Origin: a phage | Direction: 5' to 3' (one strand) | Length of the DNA: 64,000 bases | Sequence record: PX915677.1 | Shown here: positions 436-49,202 of the stretch, in pieces | Layout of the letters: each line of letters begins with the position of its first letter | How positions within the stretch are numbered: position 1 is the stretch's first letter | Position numbers and translations under genes: made by a program | Notes under the pieces: model-generated | Database searches by the model: none | Told to the model about the DNA's origin: nothing | Seen by the model: the letters and a program-made list of their open reading frames with translations, nothing else

Positions 436-600
436 AAACCTGAAAGCAACACATGACCGTTGCTATAAATACACTCGCAAATGCACTTACAGCAACGCAA
501 AAAGCCGCTCAAAGGCGGCTATGCGGAAGCTTCAAATGGGGAGAGGGCACGACGCTACAGAAAGAGCGTCACAGTACTAAAAGAGGGGGCTATATTCCTA

Positions 601-1044
601 CTACTTAACCCTTGCCTCTTTGATGGGGTCAATGTATTTCTCAACGCCCCACTTGTGTTTACTATCTGCGTAGAAAACATCAGGTGCACACTGGCTTGTC
701 TTAGGGAAAGCCTGCGGGTCTTTCGTGCTACCTTTAAACTTCTGTTTACCACGGGTGCGACCATTACAGAAGATTTCTAACTTCTTCTCCTCTTCTGTTT
801 TAGCTCCCCCGCTCTGTAACAAAGAACGTTTATGATCAGCTAACAACAACGCATCAGCCCGATGGACACGATGGCCTACACGCTTTGCAACACTGGAAGG
901 AACATGGGATTCAGCCTCAGCTTTTGCAGCACGACGTTTTAAACTACGCTTACTAATGTGATTAGTTGCCTTCGGTTTCTCTTTCTCCAGTTCAGAGATA
1001 GAAAAACAACGCCCGCCCTTCATGCTGATTTTAGATTTAGCCAC
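601..1044 (-). CDS. Hypothetical basic protein (147 aa)
   Basis: ORF track; GTG start at 1044 with AAGGAA 7 nt upstream; Lys/Arg-rich. Confidence 0.5.
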   Translation of the reverse strand: MAKSKISMKGGRCFSISELEKEKPKATNHISKRSLKRRAAKAEAESHVPSSVAKRVGHRVHRADALLLADHKRSLLQSGGAKTEEEKKLEIFCNGRTRGKQKFKGSTKDPQAFPKTSQCAPDVFYADSKHKWGVEKYIDPIKEARVK

Positions 1045-4272: not shown

Positions 4273-4281
4273 TATACATTA
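4273..4281 (-). promoter_or_regulatory. TAATGTATA promoter-like motif, minus orientation
   Basis: Plus strand tatacatta at 4273-4281; same 9-mer found upstream of four other genes in this window. Confidence 0.35.
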
Positions 4282-6439: not shown

Positions 6440-6900
6440 ACTACGGGTAACAGACCAACAGACCAGGACAAACGGGGATACAACAACCGCAGGACAGACC
6501 ACGGGGAAACATAGCAAGATAGTGCGGTAATAATATACCACTTAAATAATTGTATAACTCAAACATCAAAGACGTTCGTACTTCGTACTCACAAAGGCAC
6601 GCTGAAAAAGGAAAGTAATAAAAGAATAATAACATACAACCATTATCCACTTAATTAATACATATATCATTATTGCACTCATAATCATTACTATTGAAAC
6701 TATTTACACTCAAACTATGGGGAGCTGTGACCATCATTAATGGCATTATTAGTATGCTAATTAGTTGGCCTGTACAGTGCTAGCCTTTCTCTCACTCTTT
6801 AAAGGGGAACTAAATAAACGGGTAGGTAATGTATTGGGTAGTATACACGGGGAAAGAATAACGGGGAGTAGGCACGGGGAAAGGTGGAACGTTGAAAGGG
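6440..6900. repeat. Short direct repeats in control region: ACGGGGA (5 copies) and CAGACCA (3 copies)
   Basis: Read directly near 6448-6510 and 6845-6885. Confidence 0.4.
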
Positions 6901-15705: not shown

Positions 15706-15729
15706 CCCTGCCTTCGGGCGGGGTTTTTT
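15706..15729 (+). terminator. Intrinsic terminator
   Basis: CCCTGCC(ttcg)GGCGGGG then TTTTTT. Confidence 0.7.
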
Positions 15730-31142: not shown

Positions 31143-32792
31143 ATGCAACAGACAACTTACGCTCAGGTCAGAAGTCGTGACCCGAGAAATACTTTCTATG
31201 GTGTTAATCCGGGAGCGGCTTCGGCCTCTCCTTATATGGCTAGACCAACTCAGACAGCAGATATTTCTATGTATCAACGTCCTGCTATACCTGCTGGGCT
31301 TTCCTCTCTTGTAGGTCAAACTTCAGTAGATTATCAGAATATGTTGAATCCTGTTCAGAGTAATGGTCTTCCTTCTGATATCCCAAATGATGTACAACCT
31401 CAAGCACAACAGGCTGTAACTCTTCCTGAGTTTGAGAATCAAGAAACCATGCAAACTGCTGGACTTTCCCCTTCTTCTATTCCTCCAGAATCAGAACCTC
31501 TTCCGGTAACACCTCCTACTAAACCGTTAGAAGCTGGTCCTATGGAGTTTACTCCTTCTCAGGTGGAACAGGCACAAGGTGTGATTAATACTCTTGCTCA
31601 AGGACAAGACGCTGGTGATGGAATGACTGCTGCTACTCGTGCTAAAGATCAGGAACGTGTTAACAACGATATCTTGCAAGTTGCGAAAGCTAAAGACCCT
31701 TCGGAAGCTTGGAACAAACTACAGAAAGAACCATTCTATCAGAACTCTAGTTTCTACACAGGTTTGATGGGTGTAGGTCTTTCCATTATGTCAGGTAAGT
31801 CTCCTATTGAAGCTTTCCAGATTGGTCAGGGAATGGCTAATCAAGATGAGACTAAGAAGCAACTGGAAGCTAACCGTGATGCTCTGATTGAACAAGGCTT
31901 CTCTCAAGACTCGATCGCAGCTGCTATTGCTAACGGAGATCCATCTCTACTGAAGATGAGAGCTGTAGACCCTGCTCAGAAAGAAGCGCTGTATGCTGCT
32001 CGTGAAGAACGACAAAATGCTGAATGGGATAGACGTCAACAGATTCAAGAGCAAACTATGCGTGAGCGTGCTGATGAAACTCGTCGTGCCGCTGAAGAAA
32101 GGGCTAACATGAACTTTGAACGTCAGAAAGAGTTGATTGGTTATCGTGATAAGGTTAAGGCTGAACGTGCTGAACAAGCTGCTCAGAGTTTTAACTTTAA
32201 CCCGAAAGAAGTTCGTCTTGCTCAGAATACAGCTGAAGGTACGGTTGCTAAGCAGTGGGCAGAGAAAGGTGGCCTGTTTAACCAGTCTAACAAAGACTTG
32301 GATTTGGCTGATAAGGCTGTTAAGGATAAAGACTATCAGACAGCTCGTTCTGCTTACATGCAGGCTATCATGAACTCCGCAAGGGCTGAAATCGGTGCTA
32401 CTCGTTCTCTTACCGAAGAAGACTTGGGGCACTTTGCAGAAGACCCATCAATCTTCGTTCGTGTTGGCAACAAGTTTGCACTGAAATCTGGATGGCGTCC
32501 TACTGATTCTGCTCTTGCTTATGCTCGTAAGCAAGCTAACGTTGGTCACACCTCTGCAATGAAAGGTGTTGCTGATGCTAAGAGAGCTACGATTGAAGCT
32601 TACATCGGTTCTGGTATGGATAAGAAGAGAGCTACTGCATTGGTTAACCGTGCAATCCCTTCTGGTGGTTTCTATGACCCTCTAGGTGTTTTCTCTGAAC
32701 AAGCAGAAGAAGCAGTTGGTGGTGCAGCAACCAATCCTAAGCTTAATGGTGCTTTATCAGCTGTCGAAGACACTAGCTGGTTTACTCAATAA
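31143..32792 (+). CDS. Hypothetical internal virion protein (549 aa)
   Basis: ORF track; strong RBS. Confidence 0.55.
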   Translation: MQQTTYAQVRSRDPRNTFYGVNPGAASASPYMARPTQTADISMYQRPAIPAGLSSLVGQTSVDYQNMLNPVQSNGLPSDIPNDVQPQAQQAVTLPEFENQETMQTAGLSPSSIPPESEPLPVTPPTKPLEAGPMEFTPSQVEQAQGVINTLAQGQDAGDGMTAATRAKDQERVNNDILQVAKAKDPSEAWNKLQKEPFYQNSSFYTGLMGVGLSIMSGKSPIEAFQIGQGMANQDETKKQLEANRDALIEQGFSQDSIAAAIANGDPSLLKMRAVDPAQKEALYAAREERQNAEWDRRQQIQEQTMRERADETRRAAEERANMNFERQKELIGYRDKVKAERAEQAAQSFNFNPKEVRLAQNTAEGTVAKQWAEKGGLFNQSNKDLDLADKAVKDKDYQTARSAYMQAIMNSARAEIGATRSLTEEDLGHFAEDPSIFVRVGNKFALKSGWRPTDSALAYARKQANVGHTSAMKGVADAKRATIEAYIGSGMDKKRATALVNRAIPSGGFYDPLGVFSEQAEEAVGGAATNPKLNGALSAVEDTSWFTQ

Positions 32793-35800: not shown

Positions 35801-37281
35801 TGAATGCCTTCAACAAAGCTAACAAGAACTCTCAGTACGAAGCTGCTGCTAAGCATTTACAGGCTCGTGAAGAACGTCTTGCTACACTCAGGAAAAAGGC
35901 TCAGGCTCGTTCGGATGCTAAAGCTGCTGTTGAGAATGAACGTAAAACTCTAGAGGCTATTGCAGCTCAGAAGAGTGAGATTGAGAAGATGATGGAAGGT
36001 TTACCTAAACCTGTTCGTGAGGCTCAGGAATCTCGTACATTGAAACAGTTGGCTGCTCACCACGATAAGAACTCTCCAGTTCCTCCAGAGAAGTTCCGTA
36101 GTTACATTGAACGTATCCATAACGCCGAGTCAGACTACCTTGATCGTCAGCGTCGTTTAACTGATGCAGAGGAAGATGCTCGTCAGGCTAAGTGGAACAA
36201 GATGTATGAGCAAGCGGAAGAGATGAACCGTAAGTTTGATGTGGACAAGAGAGTTAAGCGCAGTGAAGAGCTTAAAGCGGCCCAAGAGCGTGAGAATGAC
36301 CTTATGGCAGTACAACGTCAACGTGATGACATTCATCGCCGCCTGATGCGTACTATGGAAGATAAGGGCATATCTAGAGAGGATGCTGAAGCATTTGCTG
36401 GTTCCTATATGGATAACCGTTATGCACTTCTTGAGAAGCCTATGACTCCTACTGAACATCAGAATGCTCGTTCTCGTATCGAAGCTGATGTTGAGAAGTT
36501 TGCTAAGAAGTACGAATCAATGACTCCTATCGAGAAAGAGATTGTTAAGGTTACTGGAGATACTGAAGGTAAGCTTGATAACTTGGATGCGGATACTAGG
36601 AAGGCTATTGAGGAGGCTCAGAAGGTTGACTCTGATATTAAGAAACTGCAAGAGGAAGAGTTGGAGATGGAGAAGATTCGTTCTGCTCTGCCTGATGATG
36701 AAAGATCTCAAGCAAATTCTGATATCTTGGAAAGCATTAAACAACAGGAAGAGGTCTTTGCTGATAAAGTAGAGAAAGCTTTCTTGAGTGGGAAGAGCTT
36801 GGATGAGTTGGCTAGTGTGGCTGAAGTTTTAGACAGGGTTCATGGTGCAGATAAGGCTGGTAACAACCGTCGCTTTGTACGTGCATTGCAGACTGCTGCT
36901 AAAAACAAGAAGAAGTATGGTGATAATCCAGTAGCTTGGTTTAGTGCTGATGATTACTCTGCCATTGCTAAACTTGGTGCTTCTTCCGCAGGTGGTAACA
37001 AATCCAGAGCACTGGAGAAGATCTTTGGTTCTACAGCTGAACAGGCTAAGAGTAAGTTGCTTGGTAGGGATGATGTAGCGAAGATGAGACGTGTGATTGA
37101 AGAGAACCCTGATATCAAGATTCCTTCTTACAAGACAACAAATCGTACTGAGTACTTGCAGTTCTTGGAGAAGTTTAATGACGAAGGGAAGCCTAAGATT
37201 AAACGTGGCTCATTGTCAGAGAAGCTTGAACGCAGTAAGCGTCAATCGAGACTCCGTGTAAGAGTTCGACCTAAGGAGTGA
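32860..37281 (+). CDS. Very large coiled-coil-rich virion protein (about 1470 aa), likely internal/ejection protein
   Basis: Start moved to ATG 32860 (AAAGGAGA RBS); internal AEPLPAR repeats; long Ala/Glu/Lys/Arg-rich helical regions. Confidence 0.6.
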   Translation: MANIKPWEEASKAPAYLNASPEQQAQMREQYKAAGGSIPEEQPVAQPQQEERGAIGEFAQGVSNALQSGGANIAASAAKGIGGLVEIGENLAGAQTSYGKRIQENSQNLLKERMDKIEDGIGKTVGQYAGVAGDIGLTVANPLAAAAIIAGRETGRAYADQTPEEGEDKSILDAALVGGANYAAQRILPGAVGTAESTLGRIGQNVASNAVAGAKGGALVGAAEVQNKYGDDNDLAKTLEGVIEEGAMGAAFGGAVGGVHGLISRPDSAVFKNTPEYAKTDIAADDELIRSAKNIDELKEAYSKAETANAASALNLLDENGFRITDAVAVDSPAAQRILNTDQARAEKAASVQKEHSNIPGLNPLASPAKTRGKAFADNEHNQKQAVAMKDAMADYTKDNTKALTDVLDNLDRELTSLRASGDFTGSPIDIKNRTQADRDFIDAYKTFYNEANRFKARDGEDFNNFVEKAAELQKMADNVSPEMKKAIGGLKKLKGMPEGFNPIQDAYTLNNTAKFMSNQDRGWTSLTDDGFREASSPSLVMNTLGAAKYALNRFSSQRARSQRVKQQESNSEAIRSLARGDLEVARAKSTADEARAKMEEEPVVDDIKFKTQNDVETEPVRESSSSTVTEENLPSSAPQEAPLTARDLVAQRRAIRQAEQRRAEEEALAAQEAPVEQAPQAEPLPARNPLEERRAMEQQRAQEEAAQAPEPTVEEPTVKAEPLPARAPKAPKEAVQDVKPASGVERLAAMSSAARQATKDRAERFARSLYSKAAKAKATAENFLAYKGDPKELMRRIRQEDNAINTERHEEMARNQLASQQGIATAKNNTVRTNFAEWVKERGLPEDIATKALRAEEKGLGGNVTNLDSLKRRAERLYQKQREDEFDRLYQQALEENKAFDNKNAPKLVDQKKELQSEIDALIDSEPLRPAQKDAMRKLMNDFVDGKFKSSEKAGREEALEVGQMKDIWDGFINTYNREVNAFNKANKNSQYEAAAKHLQAREERLATLRKKAQARSDAKAAVENERKTLEAIAAQKSEIEKMMEGLPKPVREAQESRTLKQLAAHHDKNSPVPPEKFRSYIERIHNAESDYLDRQRRLTDAEEDARQAKWNKMYEQAEEMNRKFDVDKRVKRSEELKAAQERENDLMAVQRQRDDIHRRLMRTMEDKGISREDAEAFAGSYMDNRYALLEKPMTPTEHQNARSRIEADVEKFAKKYESMTPIEKEIVKVTGDTEGKLDNLDADTRKAIEEAQKVDSDIKKLQEEELEMEKIRSALPDDERSQANSDILESIKQQEEVFADKVEKAFLSGKSLDELASVAEVLDRVHGADKAGNNRRFVRALQTAAKNKKKYGDNPVAWFSADDYSAIAKLGASSAGGNKSRALEKIFGSTAEQAKSKLLGRDDVAKMRRVIEENPDIKIPSYKTTNRTEYLQFLEKFNDEGKPKIKRGSLSEKLERSKRQSRLRVRVRPKE

Positions 37282-40653: not shown

Positions 40654-42139
<1,486 letters not shown>

Positions 42140-42140
<1 letters not shown>

Positions 42141-42406
42141 TATTCTATTCCACGCTCTTTAAGAGCTTCTAACAATCCGTTGTGATTAGCAGCACATTCT
42201 GTGTACTGGTCCTGATACCACTCCAACGTAGTGGCTAGTGCTTTTCCTTGAGCACTCTCTAAAAGAGGTAGGTCAACCCTACATTCAGCTTTTAGGTTTG
42301 TTGGTAAGGGCATTGATTGCCTGCTGTTGTCGCTCGTTGAACAAGCTGATAAACTAAAAGCTAGCAAAATCCCCGTACAACTCAATAGCTTTTTCTTTAT
42401 ATGCAC
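42140..42406 (-). CDS. Lipoprotein (lipobox LSAC), candidate outer-membrane spanin subunit
   Basis: GTG start at 42406 with GGAAGGAG RBS; signal MHIKKKLLSCTGILLAFSLSAC; N-terminal coding overlaps 3-prime end of HNH gene. Confidence 0.5.
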
Positions 42407-42812
42407 ACCTAGCTCCTTCCAGTGTATCATGAAAACCAAGCCAAATAACCTTATCCTCGAATCCTATTCGAGCAGTCCATTTGTTAACATCCTTCCTATA
42501 CCCGACACCTTTTATGCCTGTTATAGAATTCTTCTGAGCAGATGTATTCATCTGATTCTGCGCATTGGTTGCTTTTCTTAGGTTAGTCCAAGAGTTGTTA
42601 GATTTAATCTGATCTTTGTGGTCAATATCAGTATCAGGGATTTCCCCTGTTTTTAAATACCAAGCCACTCTGTGCGCTTTATGCGCTTTTCCATTAAATC
42701 TAATAATAATGTATCCAGCATCTATCAAACAACCGGCTTCTTTTCCAGCAAACCTAGAGTTCCATTGATTGCTCTTCTTTTCAGAGCTTCTCCATGTTAG
42801 CTTTCCTGACAC
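42354..42812 (-). CDS. HNH homing endonuclease with AP2-type DNA-binding domain
   Basis: HNH region DIDHKDQIKSNNSWTNLRKATNAQN; AP2-like C-terminus (GVGYRKDVNKWTARIGF...LGFHDTLEGARCAY). Confidence 0.7.
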   Translation of the reverse strand: MSGKLTWRSSEKKSNQWNSRFAGKEAGCLIDAGYIIIRFNGKAHKAHRVAWYLKTGEIPDTDIDHKDQIKSNNSWTNLRKATNAQNQMNTSAQKNSITGIKGVGYRKDVNKWTARIGFEDKVIWLGFHDTLEGARCAYKEKAIELYGDFASF

Positions 42813-43193: not shown

Positions 43194-43215
43194 AAAAAAG
43201 CCACCCGGAGGTGGC
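43194..43215 (-). terminator. Intrinsic terminator after SSB-like gene
   Basis: GCCACC(cgga)GGTGGC hairpin followed on minus strand by TTTTTT. Confidence 0.6.
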
Positions 43216-43237
43216 TAAGCTATAACAAGGAGAGTTA

Positions 43238-43984
43238 TTAGAATGGGCTATCGTTGTCGTCTTCGTAAGTAGAAGCAGGCTCTTTATCAATCGTAGGGAT
43301 TGAAGGAGTAGCTTCTTTCTGCTCTGTTTCAGAAGCACGAGTAATTTCACGACCAGCCAGAGGCATGTTCTTAGCGTCATTAGCTTGAGTAAGCAGGTTG
43401 CGCTGGAACGGGAACATCAGTTGATAGGATGCTACGTTCTCATCGGTTTCCGCATACGGTTCGAAGAATACCAGAGGACTACGAGCTTCACCAACTGCTG
43501 CACGATATTTGGTTGGGATTGGAGAAATGGTCTTGATGGAGTTTTTAACTTCACCAGCTTTGTTAGTGTAAGAGTTAACCAGAATGTTAACAGGCTGACC
43601 TAACAGAACATCCTTGAACCAAGACAGATCACCTTTCAGTGCTTGAATGCTTGGGTCAATCATCTTGCAAAGATCAAGAATACCAGAGTTCTTAGCTCGT
43701 GGGTTTACATCATAGCTCTTGAACTGGCAAGCCGGACGTGGTTCTAATGCCTTACCATCGGAATCTTTACCAGTAGCATCAACACCAATCAGCTCGAAAG
43801 CCAAATCCATACGGAAAGCCGGATTCTTAGGAGTTACTGCTTTGGTCTTCGGGTCAATCCAAGGGTCACGATTGTGAACACCCAAACCTACTACACGAAC
43901 GATACGAGCTTCGTATTCACCATCAGGGATTACATCGTAGTTGGATTTACGAGAAGAAGTTGCGATAGTTGGAATCATAGACAT
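43238..43984 (-). CDS. Candidate single-stranded DNA-binding protein (T7 gp2.5-like), 248 aa
   Basis: Acidic C-terminal tail ending in Phe (YEDDNDSPF); dedicated promoter motif and terminator; adjacent to replication genes. Confidence 0.5.
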   Translation of the reverse strand: MSMIPTIATSSRKSNYDVIPDGEYEARIVRVVGLGVHNRDPWIDPKTKAVTPKNPAFRMDLAFELIGVDATGKDSDGKALEPRPACQFKSYDVNPRAKNSGILDLCKMIDPSIQALKGDLSWFKDVLLGQPVNILVNSYTNKAGEVKNSIKTISPIPTKYRAAVGEARSPLVFFEPYAETDENVASYQLMFPFQRNLLTQANDAKNMPLAGREITRASETEQKEATPSIPTIDKEPASTYEDDNDSPF

Positions 43985-44043
43985 ATTTTAATTTCCTTAT
44001 TTAATTTGAAAGATTGTTGCTCTCTTTGAGCGGTTATGTATAG

Positions 44044-44052
44044 TATACATTA
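44044..44052 (-). promoter_or_regulatory. TAATGTATA promoter motif, minus orientation, within a near-palindrome
   Basis: Plus strand TTATGTATAGTATACATTA at 44034-44052; 60 nt upstream of start at 43984. Confidence 0.45.
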
Positions 44053-44115
44053 CGCTTATACCGATAAGAGTACTATATAATATAAGTATCTTTGGTAGTA
44101 GATATAACACACTAA

Positions 44116-44124
44116 TAATGTATA
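44116..44124 (+). promoter_or_regulatory. TAATGTATA motif, plus orientation, pointing into an ORF-free 280-bp region
   Basis: Exact 9-mer; no plus-strand ORF downstream. Confidence 0.3.
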
Positions 44125-44400
44125 TATTGTATAGCTGATAAAGTTATTGCAGGCTTGTATATTGGGCAATTCACAGAATCCCTTGCAAGTACCGAAGGGC
44201 AGGAGCCACCTGCGAGATAAAAATAGAGAATTAAGGAATCCTTGATTTAGGTTGTAGGGACTCCTAGGGACTTTGATTCTCTATTTAAAAGAATATTAAT
44301 TACTTATTACCTAAATAATTAACTAACTTACTTAAACCAAATTCAAGAATAATAGATAAAAAGATTATTCCTAAGAAAGCTAAAAAGTAAAGGATATAAG

Positions 44401-44649
44401 TTACCATTCAAGTAAACCTTTAAAGTTAGATTGTTCTACTATCCTCTGATAACGAAGATTAGAGTCAGCTTGTTTCTTTAACATCTCATTATATTTATCT
44501 CTGATAGAGTCTTTATATACTACAGGTTCTTTAAATAACGAGATCTTGTTCTTTTCTTCTTTCATCGAAAACCTTCCTAATCTCTTGCAGAGAAACAGCT
44601 TTATAATTAATTTGCTCCATTGATGTACAGAAATATCTCCAATCATCAA
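44401..44649 (-). CDS. Hypothetical small protein (true start likely internal)
   Basis: ORF track; overlaps 3-prime end of upstream gene. Confidence 0.4.
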   Translation of the reverse strand: MMIGDISVHQWSKLIIKLFLCKRLGRFSMKEEKNKISLFKEPVVYKDSIRDKYNEMLKKQADSNLRYQRIVEQSNFKGLLEW

Positions 44650-47357: not shown

Positions 47358-49202
47358 TTAGTGTGTATGCATCCAGTTAAGTCCAATCTGACAATCAGAT
47401 GCCAGAGGACATTCCATATTCAGATACTCGCCAGCTTTCTTAACACAAAGCTCGGTGTGCTCTTTGAGTTTCTGTACATCATTACGGTTTACTGAGAATT
47501 GACCTTCATCGTGCATATCAATTACCTTAGCACAACGAACCTTATCTTTCTCAATCCACTTGTTAAGGAACATCATAGCATATTTCATAACAACAGCACC
47601 AGCACATTGCAGGAGTGTGTTAAGGGCTTTATGAACCATAACCTTACCAGTGGCATCCCGTCTCATTGTAATCTTACGACCATCAACTCCAATCAAGTAT
47701 CCTTGAGCAGCTTTCTCTGTCATACGATCAATGAGGATTGCAATACATGGGTTCTCTGCTAAGAAACGTGCTCGCATCACTGAACCTTCGTCAGCCCCAC
47801 CACCTACAATTGAACCAAGCTTAGCATCACCAGCACCATAGTTGAATGCGTAGATAAACGTCTTAGCGTTGTCACGAGTAGGAAGACCAGCAAGTTTCTG
47901 GTTGTGGGAGTGGATATCACCTTCAAGGAGAATATCACGATACATAATAGCAGAAGCTAAACCACGTTCTGCCAGAGCTTTCTTAGCTGGGTTGTTCTCT
48001 TCAATTGCCTCAGCAAGCATATCCCTACACTCTTTAATGAGGTAGTGAGCGAGCATACGAAGTTCAAGTCCAGAACCATCATACCCTAAGAATACTTCTT
48101 TACCAGCGGGTATGTAATATTTGTAAGCACCTATAGGTTTATCTTTCTTCCCCGGCTTACCTTTCTCGTAAATTACGTTAGTACCTTTTCGTATATAACA
48201 ACCATCAGGAACAACGTTAGTAATAACGAAAGGACGAGAGTGATCACTGTCTGAGTTATAGTCAGACTCAAACAAACTGCGACACTCGTGACCAAACAGA
48301 CCACGGGAGGGAATATTAACCACGATACGATGTTTGAATCGAAAAGTCGGCGTAGCGCAGCTGTTAGCTTCTGCCGAAAGTTTACCATCTTCGCGTTCCT
48401 TTGCTATGAGTCCACTGATAAGACCTAGCCTGTGAGCCGCTACAACGCGTCTCTTAAGCAAACTTCCGACACTCCCTAGCTCACCCCCTAACCCTTCTTC
48501 AAGAGTCTCCTCGAGGTTTGTAGGAGCTGTAGGCCACTTGTTTGATGTGGCTAGTGCTTTCTTAATCTCATCAAACGTTACAGGATTACGGCGATTAGGG
48601 TTCAACCCCAAACCAAATACGTAAGCCTTCATGTAATTCTTAGTCTTAAACCTGAAATGCTTTTCTAAGAACTTCTTAATATCAGCGTCAACCATCTCGG
48701 CTGTCTGCTTCTGCTTAGCATTGCCTCGCATCCAAGCAGTATACCATGCTTGGTATGTTCCATACTTTCTCATATCTTTCTTAATTTCGAAAGTATTCCA
48801 AGGCTTCTTAGATACGTTAAACTCTGGAGGAAGGAAGCCCTCATCCATAAGAGCTTCTTTAACTCGTGCATCTTTAGATGGGTCAAAGTCTACATATTCG
48901 ACACAGGTGAAAGCTCCACCAATATCTTCTCTCTTCAGCCCAACCCTATCACAATAGGCTTGAGGCCACTTCTGTAAAGCTCCAGACTTCTTAAACGGCT
49001 TCATATAAGTAGAGCCATCTAATCTCATCTTAGGTAAGAGAGGAATCAACTCTCTGTCAATATTAACAATAATCTCTTTAAGGAGGTGAACATACCACCG
49101 AGCATTTCTTCGGTTGAAACTCACTCCGTGCTTTGCTTGCTTAGAGATTATATCAGCGACAGTCATCTCTGTCAAAAATGGAAGAGCGTCCGGGTTGCTC
49201 AC
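47358..49202 (-). CDS. DNA polymerase, family A, polymerase domain only (614 aa)
   Basis: Motif A region LGYDGSGLELRMLAHY, motif B RDNAKTFIYAFNYGAG, motif C VIDMHDEGQF; no exonuclease motifs in this ORF. Confidence 0.85.
   Translation of the reverse strand: MSNPDALPFLTEMTVADIISKQAKHGVSFNRRNARWYVHLLKEIIVNIDRELIPLLPKMRLDGSTYMKPFKKSGALQKWPQAYCDRVGLKREDIGGAFTCVEYVDFDPSKDARVKEALMDEGFLPPEFNVSKKPWNTFEIKKDMRKYGTYQAWYTAWMRGNAKQKQTAEMVDADIKKFLEKHFRFKTKNYMKAYVFGLGLNPNRRNPVTFDEIKKALATSNKWPTAPTNLEETLEEGLGGELGSVGSLLKRRVVAAHRLGLISGLIAKEREDGKLSAEANSCATPTFRFKHRIVVNIPSRGLFGHECRSLFESDYNSDSDHSRPFVITNVVPDGCYIRKGTNVIYEKGKPGKKDKPIGAYKYYIPAGKEVFLGYDGSGLELRMLAHYLIKECRDMLAEAIEENNPAKKALAERGLASAIMYRDILLEGDIHSHNQKLAGLPTRDNAKTFIYAFNYGAGDAKLGSIVGGGADEGSVMRARFLAENPCIAILIDRMTEKAAQGYLIGVDGRKITMRRDATGKVMVHKALNTLLQCAGAVVMKYAMMFLNKWIEKDKVRCAKVIDMHDEGQFSVNRNDVQKLKEHTELCVKKAGEYLNMECPLASDCQIGLNWMHTH

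Follow-up and report, generated by a model that had tools for sequence, protein, structure and literature searches.

A candidate seventh gp36 promoter, directed against its gene block, and the structured RNA that it may drive in a phiEco32-like phage

INTRODUCTION

Replacement of the host sigma factor by a phage, through gp36 together with gp79, has its reference system in phiEco32, for which cryo-electron microscopy (cryo-EM) structures are now available. The promoters used by Escherichia coli RNA polymerase (RNAP) with gp36 have a single published element, tAATGTAtA (PMC8948821, PMC4331800, PMC4281155). The published list comprises six of these promoters, of which P6, P13 and P26 are late and P40, P58 and P68 middle (PMC8948821, text and Table S3; PMC4331800; PMC4281155). 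Transcription starts 6-8 bp downstream of the element, a distance given as 6-9 elsewhere in the same paper (PMC8948821). The 2025 cryo-EM structure of P68 with RNAP, gp36 and gp79 places AATG at -14 to -11, and the C-terminal domain of gp36 reads -37G and -34A; mutating these two bases abolishes transcription from P68 (PMC12276001). Here we analyse a phage sequence of 64,000 nucleotides (record PX915677.1; 'the window' refers to this entire 64-kb stretch), which is a Kuravirus (phiEco32-like) genome. The element in question is a second copy of the gp36 motif, here named P_as, located close to P40 in a 416-bp region (43985-44400). This region is the phi32_40/phi32_41 intergenic spacer and lies inside a long minus-strand gene block.

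Other described systems offer parallels. The OOP RNA of phage lambda is a sigma-70-dependent, 77-nt transcript that overlaps the cII coding sequence, and its role was historically disputed, with antisense regulation and replication priming both proposed. The primary origin of T7, ori(uvsY) and ori(34) of T4 and RNA II of ColE1 are transcription-primed, and the ColE1 primer RNA is folded. The par locus of pAD1 (Fst RNA I/RNA II) is a convergent type I toxin-antitoxin locus. For the locus described here, we regard as likely a model in which a seventh, antisense gp36 promoter drives a structured non-coding RNA of about 155-160 nt within the gene 40/41 spacer.

RESULTS

The probable plus-strand promoter

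The published -10 element of gp36 promoters, TAATGTATA, is present in six exact copies in the 64-kb window, where 0.65 would be expected; none of 100 shuffles reached six. All six published promoters were located in the window (8347+, 15758+, 32813+, 44044-, 50608- and 55224-), so that the minus-strand copy at 44044-44052 is the known P40. Each of the six has a purine at -37 and A at -34. Two exact copies fall outside the published list, at 44116 (+) and 4273 (-). The former had been picked out in the initial annotation as a perfect plus-oriented copy 63 nt from the element at 44044-44052, and it is indeed there. The features of the two promoters are as follows.

44044-44052, minus strand: -10 element of the published middle promoter P40, an exact TAATGTATA; -37 to -34 read AGTA (44074-44071) and the predicted start is A44037
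44092-44104, plus strand: -35 block of P_as, TTGGTAGTAGATA, at positions -39 to -27; G44094 is -37 and A44097 is -34
44116-44124, plus strand: -10 element of P_as, an exact TAATGTATA, at positions -15 to -7

The plus-strand copy is very probably a seventh gp36 promoter, antisense in orientation, at which gp36-RNAP may be expected to fire in middle to late infection. Its -10 element has A at -14 and -13, T at -12 and G at -11, its -35 GGTA (44094-44097) provides the purine at -37 and the A at -34, and the predicted start, at about A44131, places A at +1. The 13-mer TTGGTAGTAGATA is shared with P68 (55244-55256, minus strand) at an identical distance from the 9-mer, and these are its only two exact occurrences in 64 kb; P_as thus carries both of the bases contacted by gp36. 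The site does not lie in sense orientation upstream of a middle or late gene: it is directed against the minus-strand block, and no conserved open reading frame (ORF) lies downstream of it on the plus strand. The predicted starts of P40 and P_as are 94 bp apart.

Conservation was assessed on 29 distinct versions of the region drawn from phage records, IMG/VR, metagenomes and Logan assemblies (individual versions and relatives carry L numbers), in which the identity of the gene 40 product falls to 71% of amino acids. All 29 have either GGTAGTA or GGTAGTG as the -35 box. Between GGTA and the 9-mer lies a spacer of 18 nt in 24 versions and of 17 nt in five, the sequence of which is free to vary. 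The 9-mer is TAATGTATA in 23 versions, TAATGAATA in four, GAATGTATT in one and TAATaTATA in a single assembly (L053), so AATG, and with it the pair of boxes, is kept in 28/29. Conserved boxes flanking a spacer of fixed length and variable sequence give P_as the appearance of a working promoter. The P40 element is unchanged in 19 of 19 aligned relatives. L002 and L018 have about 130 bp of extra sequence between the two promoters (relative to window position 44064/44065), with small inverted repeats of its own, CTACCGGAAGGTAG and TTTGTCCAAACAAA; since both promoters are intact despite the insert, P40 and P_as need not adjoin. More distant gene 40 relatives (64-70% amino acid identity; L007-L009, L069 and L070) have a GGTA-N18-TAATGGATA promoter for gene 40, and neither the divergent promoter nor the RNA element is present in them.

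The 9-mer motif and P40 are already known (PMC8948821, PMC4331800), and P_as is not found listed. It was not found in the literature on gp36 promoters, a coverage outside which the primary promoter report (Pavlova et al. 2012) lies.

The initial annotation had centred on a near-palindrome, TTATGTATAGTATACATTA, at 44034-44052, in which the minus-strand 9-mer faces a near-copy on the plus strand. The structure is present as described, as a 10-nt inverted repeat of 90% complementarity, and its other arm can be listed as follows.

44034-44042, plus strand: near-copy TTATGTATA, with T at -14 and T at -34

Conservation of the motif, which the initial annotation had made a test of its proposal, holds for the two boxes of the plus-strand copy and not for this near-copy, which is replaced by TTTGTATAC or TGGTATACT in L005, L013, L014, L016, L017 and L021. 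Lacking -14A and -34A and altered in these six relatives, the near-copy was rejected as a promoter. The tandem TATTGTATA (44125, plus strand) was rejected as well, having lost -13A.

The predicted RNA

The product of P_as would comprise the following elements, here listed with the tract beyond them.

44131-44147, plus strand: hairpin H1, AUAGCU-GAUAA-AGUUAU, with the predicted 5' end at A44131
44148-44193, plus strand: exchangeable central module, type A here and types B, C and D in relatives
44199-44213, plus strand: hairpin H3, GCAGG-AGCCA-CCUGC, in the loop of which one position varies between C and A (AGMCA)
44221-44286, plus strand: H4, a 66-nt long hairpin containing the inverted repeat and two copies of TAGGGACT
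44270-44369, no strand: AT-rich tract of 17% G+C, the most AT-rich 100 bp of the 64-kb window, directly downstream of H4 in the direction of P_as

H1 begins exactly 6 nt past the 9-mer, at the expected +1, in 29/29 versions. Its nine sequence versions make 45 of 45 standard pairs, and compensatory changes give four of the five positions at least two Watson-Crick pair types (position 2, U-A/G-C/C-G/U-G; position 3, A-U/C-G; position 4, G-U/G-C/U-A; position 5, C-G/U-A/A-U). When the 3' partner is slid by 1-3 nt only 11-26 of the 45 pairs form, and in 5000 shuffles of the 3' arms 45 was never reached. In three H1 versions, the commonest included, a G-U or U-G pair occurs where the minus strand would have mismatched A.C, which argues that selection acts on the plus-strand RNA. 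The minus strand would likewise have A.C in place of the G-U pairs of module C and H4. The consensus fold is more stable on the plus than on the minus strand (-38.9 versus -29.3 kcal/mol for type A and -48.7 versus -40.9 for type B), an advantage that is partly the usual gain of a G+U-rich strand.

Four unrelated types of central module were observed, A in 87 and B in 12 of 99 phage records, C and D in assemblies. Module type does not track the phylogeny of the flanks, which points to exchange by recombination. As read from the sequences, module B has one compensatory pair (CUG/CAG versus CCG/CGG) and module C two (UCCUU/AAGGA versus UCGUC/GGCGA, the latter with a U-G pair possible only on the plus strand). 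In H3 one pair changes from A-U to U-A in L063, giving GCUGG...CCAGC. A long-range helix, UUGCAGG/CCUGCGA, proposed by minimum free energy folding and by RNAalifold, was rejected since L063 disrupts it and yet compensates the local hairpin GCWGG/CCWGC. Likewise, a plus-strand ORF at 44147-44245 (32 amino acids, TTG start) was set aside, as the central module that contains it is replaced in relatives.

The initial annotation had estimated the ORF-free stretch beyond P_as at about 280 bp. It measures about 175 bp (44125-44299), because 44300-44407 on the minus strand is a homolog of the annotated 35-amino acid phi32_41. No conserved ORF, tRNA or Rfam family explains the region: a tRNA/tmRNA scan of the window returned none, and Rfam gave no gathering-level match in the window and only chance-level matches in the region (E 0.3-8.7). 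The 416-bp region matched 99 phage records at 80-100% identity, nearly all of them Escherichia/Shigella phages of the phiEco32 type (Kuravirus, Suseptimavirus), and the RNA region had no match in 5,426 E. coli genomes. In phiEco32 itself, window positions 44131-44290 correspond to 36703-36862. The core pattern was found in IMG/VR in five Kuravirus contigs only, a metagenome scan contributed few additional versions and a scan with the composite promoter pattern returned mostly unrelated random matches. Literature searches on a phiEco32 small RNA, origin or transcriptome yielded nothing relevant; the RNA-seq in one paper that mentions Kuravirus concerned a different phage. In L021 (phage 101114UKE3) a 53-amino acid 'hypothetical protein' is annotated over the promoter and RNA region (596-757, minus strand), most likely an over-call.

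The predicted 3' hairpin and the AT-rich tract

The 11-bp inverted repeat and the direct repeat noted in the initial annotation were both recovered by a repeat search. The inverted repeat AAATAGAGAAT/ATTCTCTATTT occupies 44221-44231 and 44276-44286 and, at 93% complementarity, can be lengthened to 14 nt; the two copies of TAGGGACT lie at 44255-44262 and 44265-44272, 10 bp from start to start. H4 belongs to a core of 96 nt (44192-44287) that is 94-100% identical among versions, compared with 81-83% for gene 40 DNA. Its stem is A/U-rich and its loop 38-44 nt long, and a terminator scan did not match it on either strand. A U5 run (44223-44219) comes after H4 on the minus strand, and 28 of 29 versions have this A5/T5 run unchanged. 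Terminators precede promoters P6 and P13. Given these terminators, the conserved minus-strand U5 and the terminator that closes gene 40 (43216-43199), we read H4 as a two-way element.

The AT-rich tract follows H4 in every variant, whether it contains gene 41, another small ORF or no ORF. It is partly coding and its sequence is not conserved.

Neighbouring genes

The minus-strand block also carries the sigma factor gp36 (41033-41680) and the DNA polymerase (47358-49202). The genes that border the spacer, and the end of gene 40, are:

43238-43984, minus strand: gene 40 homolog, 248 amino acids, an SSB-like (single-stranded DNA-binding protein) product with an oligonucleotide-binding (OB) fold and an acidic C-terminal tail ending in ...DDNDSPF
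43199-43216, minus strand: canonical terminator-like hairpin and T-run, AGCCACCTCCGGGTGGCT then TTTTTCG, directly 3' of gene 40
44300-44407, minus strand: gene 41 homolog, a 35-amino acid single-helix hydrophobic peptide (phrog_24970), convergent with P_as

The SSB-like label given to gene 40 in the initial annotation is borne out, since its product has both the OB fold and the acidic C-terminal tail that mark an SSB. Pfam and PDB sequence searches found no match for it, and none to the DUF2815 family of Pfam. Its structure model, based on an alignment of database homologs, is a confident OB fold, and fold searches group it with OB folds of the SSB type and not with initiators. A comparison with the NCBIfam 'phage replication initiation protein, NGO0469 family' gave E 2e-5 and 24 bits, under the cut-off of 75. 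With P40 upstream and the clean terminator at 43216-43199 bracketing it, gene 40 appears to be a one-gene unit. Its leader (43982-44023, minus strand) contains a small conserved hairpin, GCUC-AAAGA-GAGC, the L006 version of which is GCUCA-AAG-UGAGC. Against the Rfam DUF2815 RNA motif (RF03084) the leader scored 15.2 bits (E 2.2-7.4), below the gathering threshold of 41.2, and the match consists mostly of the ribosome-binding site and ATG.

Gene 41 is missing or substituted in several relatives that retain the RNA region. Immediately before H4 on the minus strand, different phages carry different small hydrophobic ORFs, namely the 35-amino acid gene 41, a 26-amino acid MSIYKKFLVFVSICLVLDIIIIYSFK (L002, 2480-2560, in the orientation of gene 40) or the 62-amino acid gp40.1 of phage LAMP, or no gene. 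Further along the block, an HNH endonuclease gene (152 amino acids, 42354-42812, minus strand) separates the gene 37 and gene 39 homologs; it is probably a mobile insertion, as phiEco32 holds only about 145 bp and a 57-amino acid ORF there. Its neighbour at 42836-43204 matches an Rz-like spanin family.

Further copies of the promoter element

The exact TAATGTATA at 4273-4281 (minus strand) lies in an ORF-poor early control region and overlaps a sigma-70-like TTGCAA-N16-TATACT. It reads CCCT at -37 to -34, with C and T in place of the -37 purine and the -34A, and was rejected as an eighth gp36 promoter; it probably belongs to an early host-type promoter. The late promoters P13 and P26 have AAGACCTA in common at -37 to -30 (15721-15728 and 32776-32783, plus strand), in parallel to TTGGTAGTAGATA in P68 and P_as, and the -35 region of gp36 promoters may come in class-specific versions. 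AAGACCTA also stands directly upstream of a one-mismatch copy, TAATGTTTA, at 41744-41752 (minus strand), just ahead of the sigma gene. Another one-mismatch copy, TAATGTATT at 6827-6835 (plus strand), has GGGA at -37 to -34 like P6. Its surroundings, close to the strand switch, are AT-rich and poor in ORFs, and it may be one more candidate gp36 promoter. By eye, the predicted transcripts of P58 (AGUGUACACU, 50601-50592, minus strand) and P68 (ACAA-UAAGAAU-UUGU, 55217-55203, minus strand) likewise start with a small hairpin at +1; middle transcripts made with gp36 may in general carry a 5' stem-loop.

DISCUSSION

Based on these observations we propose that the gene 40/41 spacer contains two separate promoters placed back to back. 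P40 would read leftwards into the SSB-like gene 40, and P_as rightwards, against the whole minus-strand block. The transcript of P_as would run from a 5' hairpin at +1 through an exchangeable central hairpin module and the GCAGG/CCUGC hairpin to the near-invariant long 3' hairpin, and an end at H4 would make it about 155-160 nt long. Given the U5 run on the minus strand, H4 is probably also the terminator of the upstream minus-strand operon; for the P_as RNA it would be a 3' hairpin or a site of pausing or processing. The two transcripts would then be convergent and their 3' ends would overlap. A gp36-driven, structured, antisense-oriented small RNA that converges with the upstream operon is thus probably the statement best supported by the data, and a regulatory or antisense role may be envisaged for it. 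The initial annotation had suggested a bidirectional promoter with a small RNA, or a replication origin. The small RNA has gained comparative evidence from the conserved two-box plus-strand promoter, the compensatory hairpins and the G-U pairs possible only on the plus strand, whereas the bidirectional promoter resolves into two.

Several observations weigh against this model. In one assembly (L053) -11G is changed to A, and the relatives with TAATGAATA have a spacer that is 1 bp shorter. H4 offers no two-sided change, only one-sided ones (A-U to G-U in L015, U-A to C.A in L017), and the change in L017 breaks a predicted plus-strand pair of H4 and fits a minus-strand pair. With so little variation in the core, the fold of H4 and the core is unproven. 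For the conserved A5/T5 run, a minus-strand terminator is the better explanation. The scan found no canonical intrinsic terminator on the plus strand, where only 2-4 U follow H4, so the P_as RNA may run on as a long antisense transcript. The search for trans targets within the window returned one 12-mer and eight 11-mers of complementarity, which is about chance. Finally, the P_as site may have been noted or tested earlier, in Pavlova et al. 2012.

How do other explanations fare against these data? In an origin primed or activated by transcription, P_as would read through a structured, G-containing segment into the AT-rich tract and provide a primer, an R-loop or duplex opening. The order of promoter, structured RNA and the most AT-rich 100 bp of the window (17% G+C), maintained after H4 in every variant, would suit this, as would the two direct repeats 10 bp apart, the position among replication genes (gene 40, the DNA polymerase at 47358-49202 and a 5'-3' exonuclease) and the weak, sub-cut-off match of gene 40 to the NGO0469 family (E 2e-5, 24 bits). 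Yet cumulative GC skew turns only with gene orientation, at about 7 kb and 37.5 kb, and does not change at 44 kb; the tract is partly coding and not conserved in sequence, the repeats are only two, and gene 40 folds with OB proteins of the SSB type, not with initiators. To our knowledge, selection on RNA hairpins is not a requirement of origins of the T7 or T4 type, which also counts against an origin. On balance we consider an origin unlikely, while noting that the origin and RNA readings can be compatible, the RNA then being the primer. If the conserved element instead acted only on the minus strand, as the terminator or 3' untranslated region of the operon ahead of P40, the plus-strand 9-mer would be silent or incidental. 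The H4 stem followed by U5, with the A5/T5 run invariant in 28/29, would then be accounted for, as would the terminator-then-promoter units at P6 and P13 and the L017 change, which suits the minus-strand inner stem. What this leaves unexplained is a -35 and a -10 box at fixed spacing over a variable spacer, the 13-mer shared with P68, and a compensatory hairpin fixed at +1 whose commonest version is A.C-mismatched on the minus strand; moreover, H4 was not recovered in the canonical terminator scan. An action confined to the minus strand is in our opinion decidedly unlikely.

The layout also recalls a type I toxin-antitoxin locus, with the RNA as an antitoxin-like antisense RNA against gene 41 and convergent transcripts with a common 3' hairpin. 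A 35-amino acid hydrophobic single-helix peptide is convergent with P_as, with H4 in between, and L002 has a different 26-amino acid hydrophobic ORF at the same place. In L005, L011 and L015-L017, however, the RNA and P_as are nearly unchanged and no small ORF is found there; the RNA persists where gene 41 is absent and is thus independent of it, which renders a toxin-antitoxin function very improbable. As to the near-palindrome TTATGTATAGTATACATTA acting by itself as a bidirectional promoter or operator, its 10-nt inverted repeat has 90% complementarity and the TGTATA..TATACA pair persists in relatives with a spacer of 1 or 3 nt. Its plus arm, though, lacks -14A and -34A and becomes TTTGTATAC or TGGTATACT in six relatives, and the palindrome sits in the initially transcribed region of P40, the actual P_as being downstream on the plus strand; we would be greatly surprised if it had this function. 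The antisense gp36 promoter with its structured RNA can also be taken a step further, to a modular small RNA in which a fixed scaffold (5' hairpin, GCAGG hairpin and invariant 3' hairpin) hosts at least four unrelated modules (A-D), swapped by recombination independently of the phage backbone and serving as a specificity cassette, with expression by the phage sigma factor from mid to late infection. We offer this as a rather unlikely elaboration; if true, the module could select a host or phage RNA target, or evade or neutralise an RNA-sensing host defence.

What would a seventh gp36 promoter of this kind imply? A natural promoter carrying the -35 block of P68 would independently back the newly described -35 contacts, and its transcript would be the first antisense non-coding output found for the gp36 transcription system. 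We know of no replication origin in phiEco32-type phages; as a concrete candidate, the RNA could prime one or, alternatively, be an RNA regulator. The RNA is conserved in the matching phage records, many of them isolates studied for therapy, and existing records leave this stretch blank or give it a spurious ORF.

The P_as RNA can be compared with the systems introduced above. Like lambda OOP it would be a short RNA from a promoter set against the main operon in a region of replication genes, with a convergent 3' overlap and a hairpin end (predicted for P_as), and the same two readings, antisense regulator and replication primer, come into consideration. It has no similarity to OOP in sequence or structure, contains an exchangeable module and overlaps its opposing transcript at the 3' hairpin, reaching gene 41 only if there is read-through. 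With the T7, T4 and ColE1 origins the locus shares a phage- or plasmid-specific promoter directed into an AT-rich, easily unwound tract; the locus differs in having no skew signal and a tract that is partly coding and variable. The gene for a small hydrophobic peptide and a convergent small RNA that share a two-way 3' hairpin recall pAD1 par, whereas here the RNA persists without the peptide gene. Compared with P68 and the set formed with P6, P13, P26, P40 and P58, the predicted P_as stands apart in that it points against the gene block, has no ORF downstream and is outside the published six. It nonetheless resembles them in the -10 core AATGTA, in the A at the predicted +1 and in the 13-bp block TTGGTAGTAGATA of P68, held at the same spacing.

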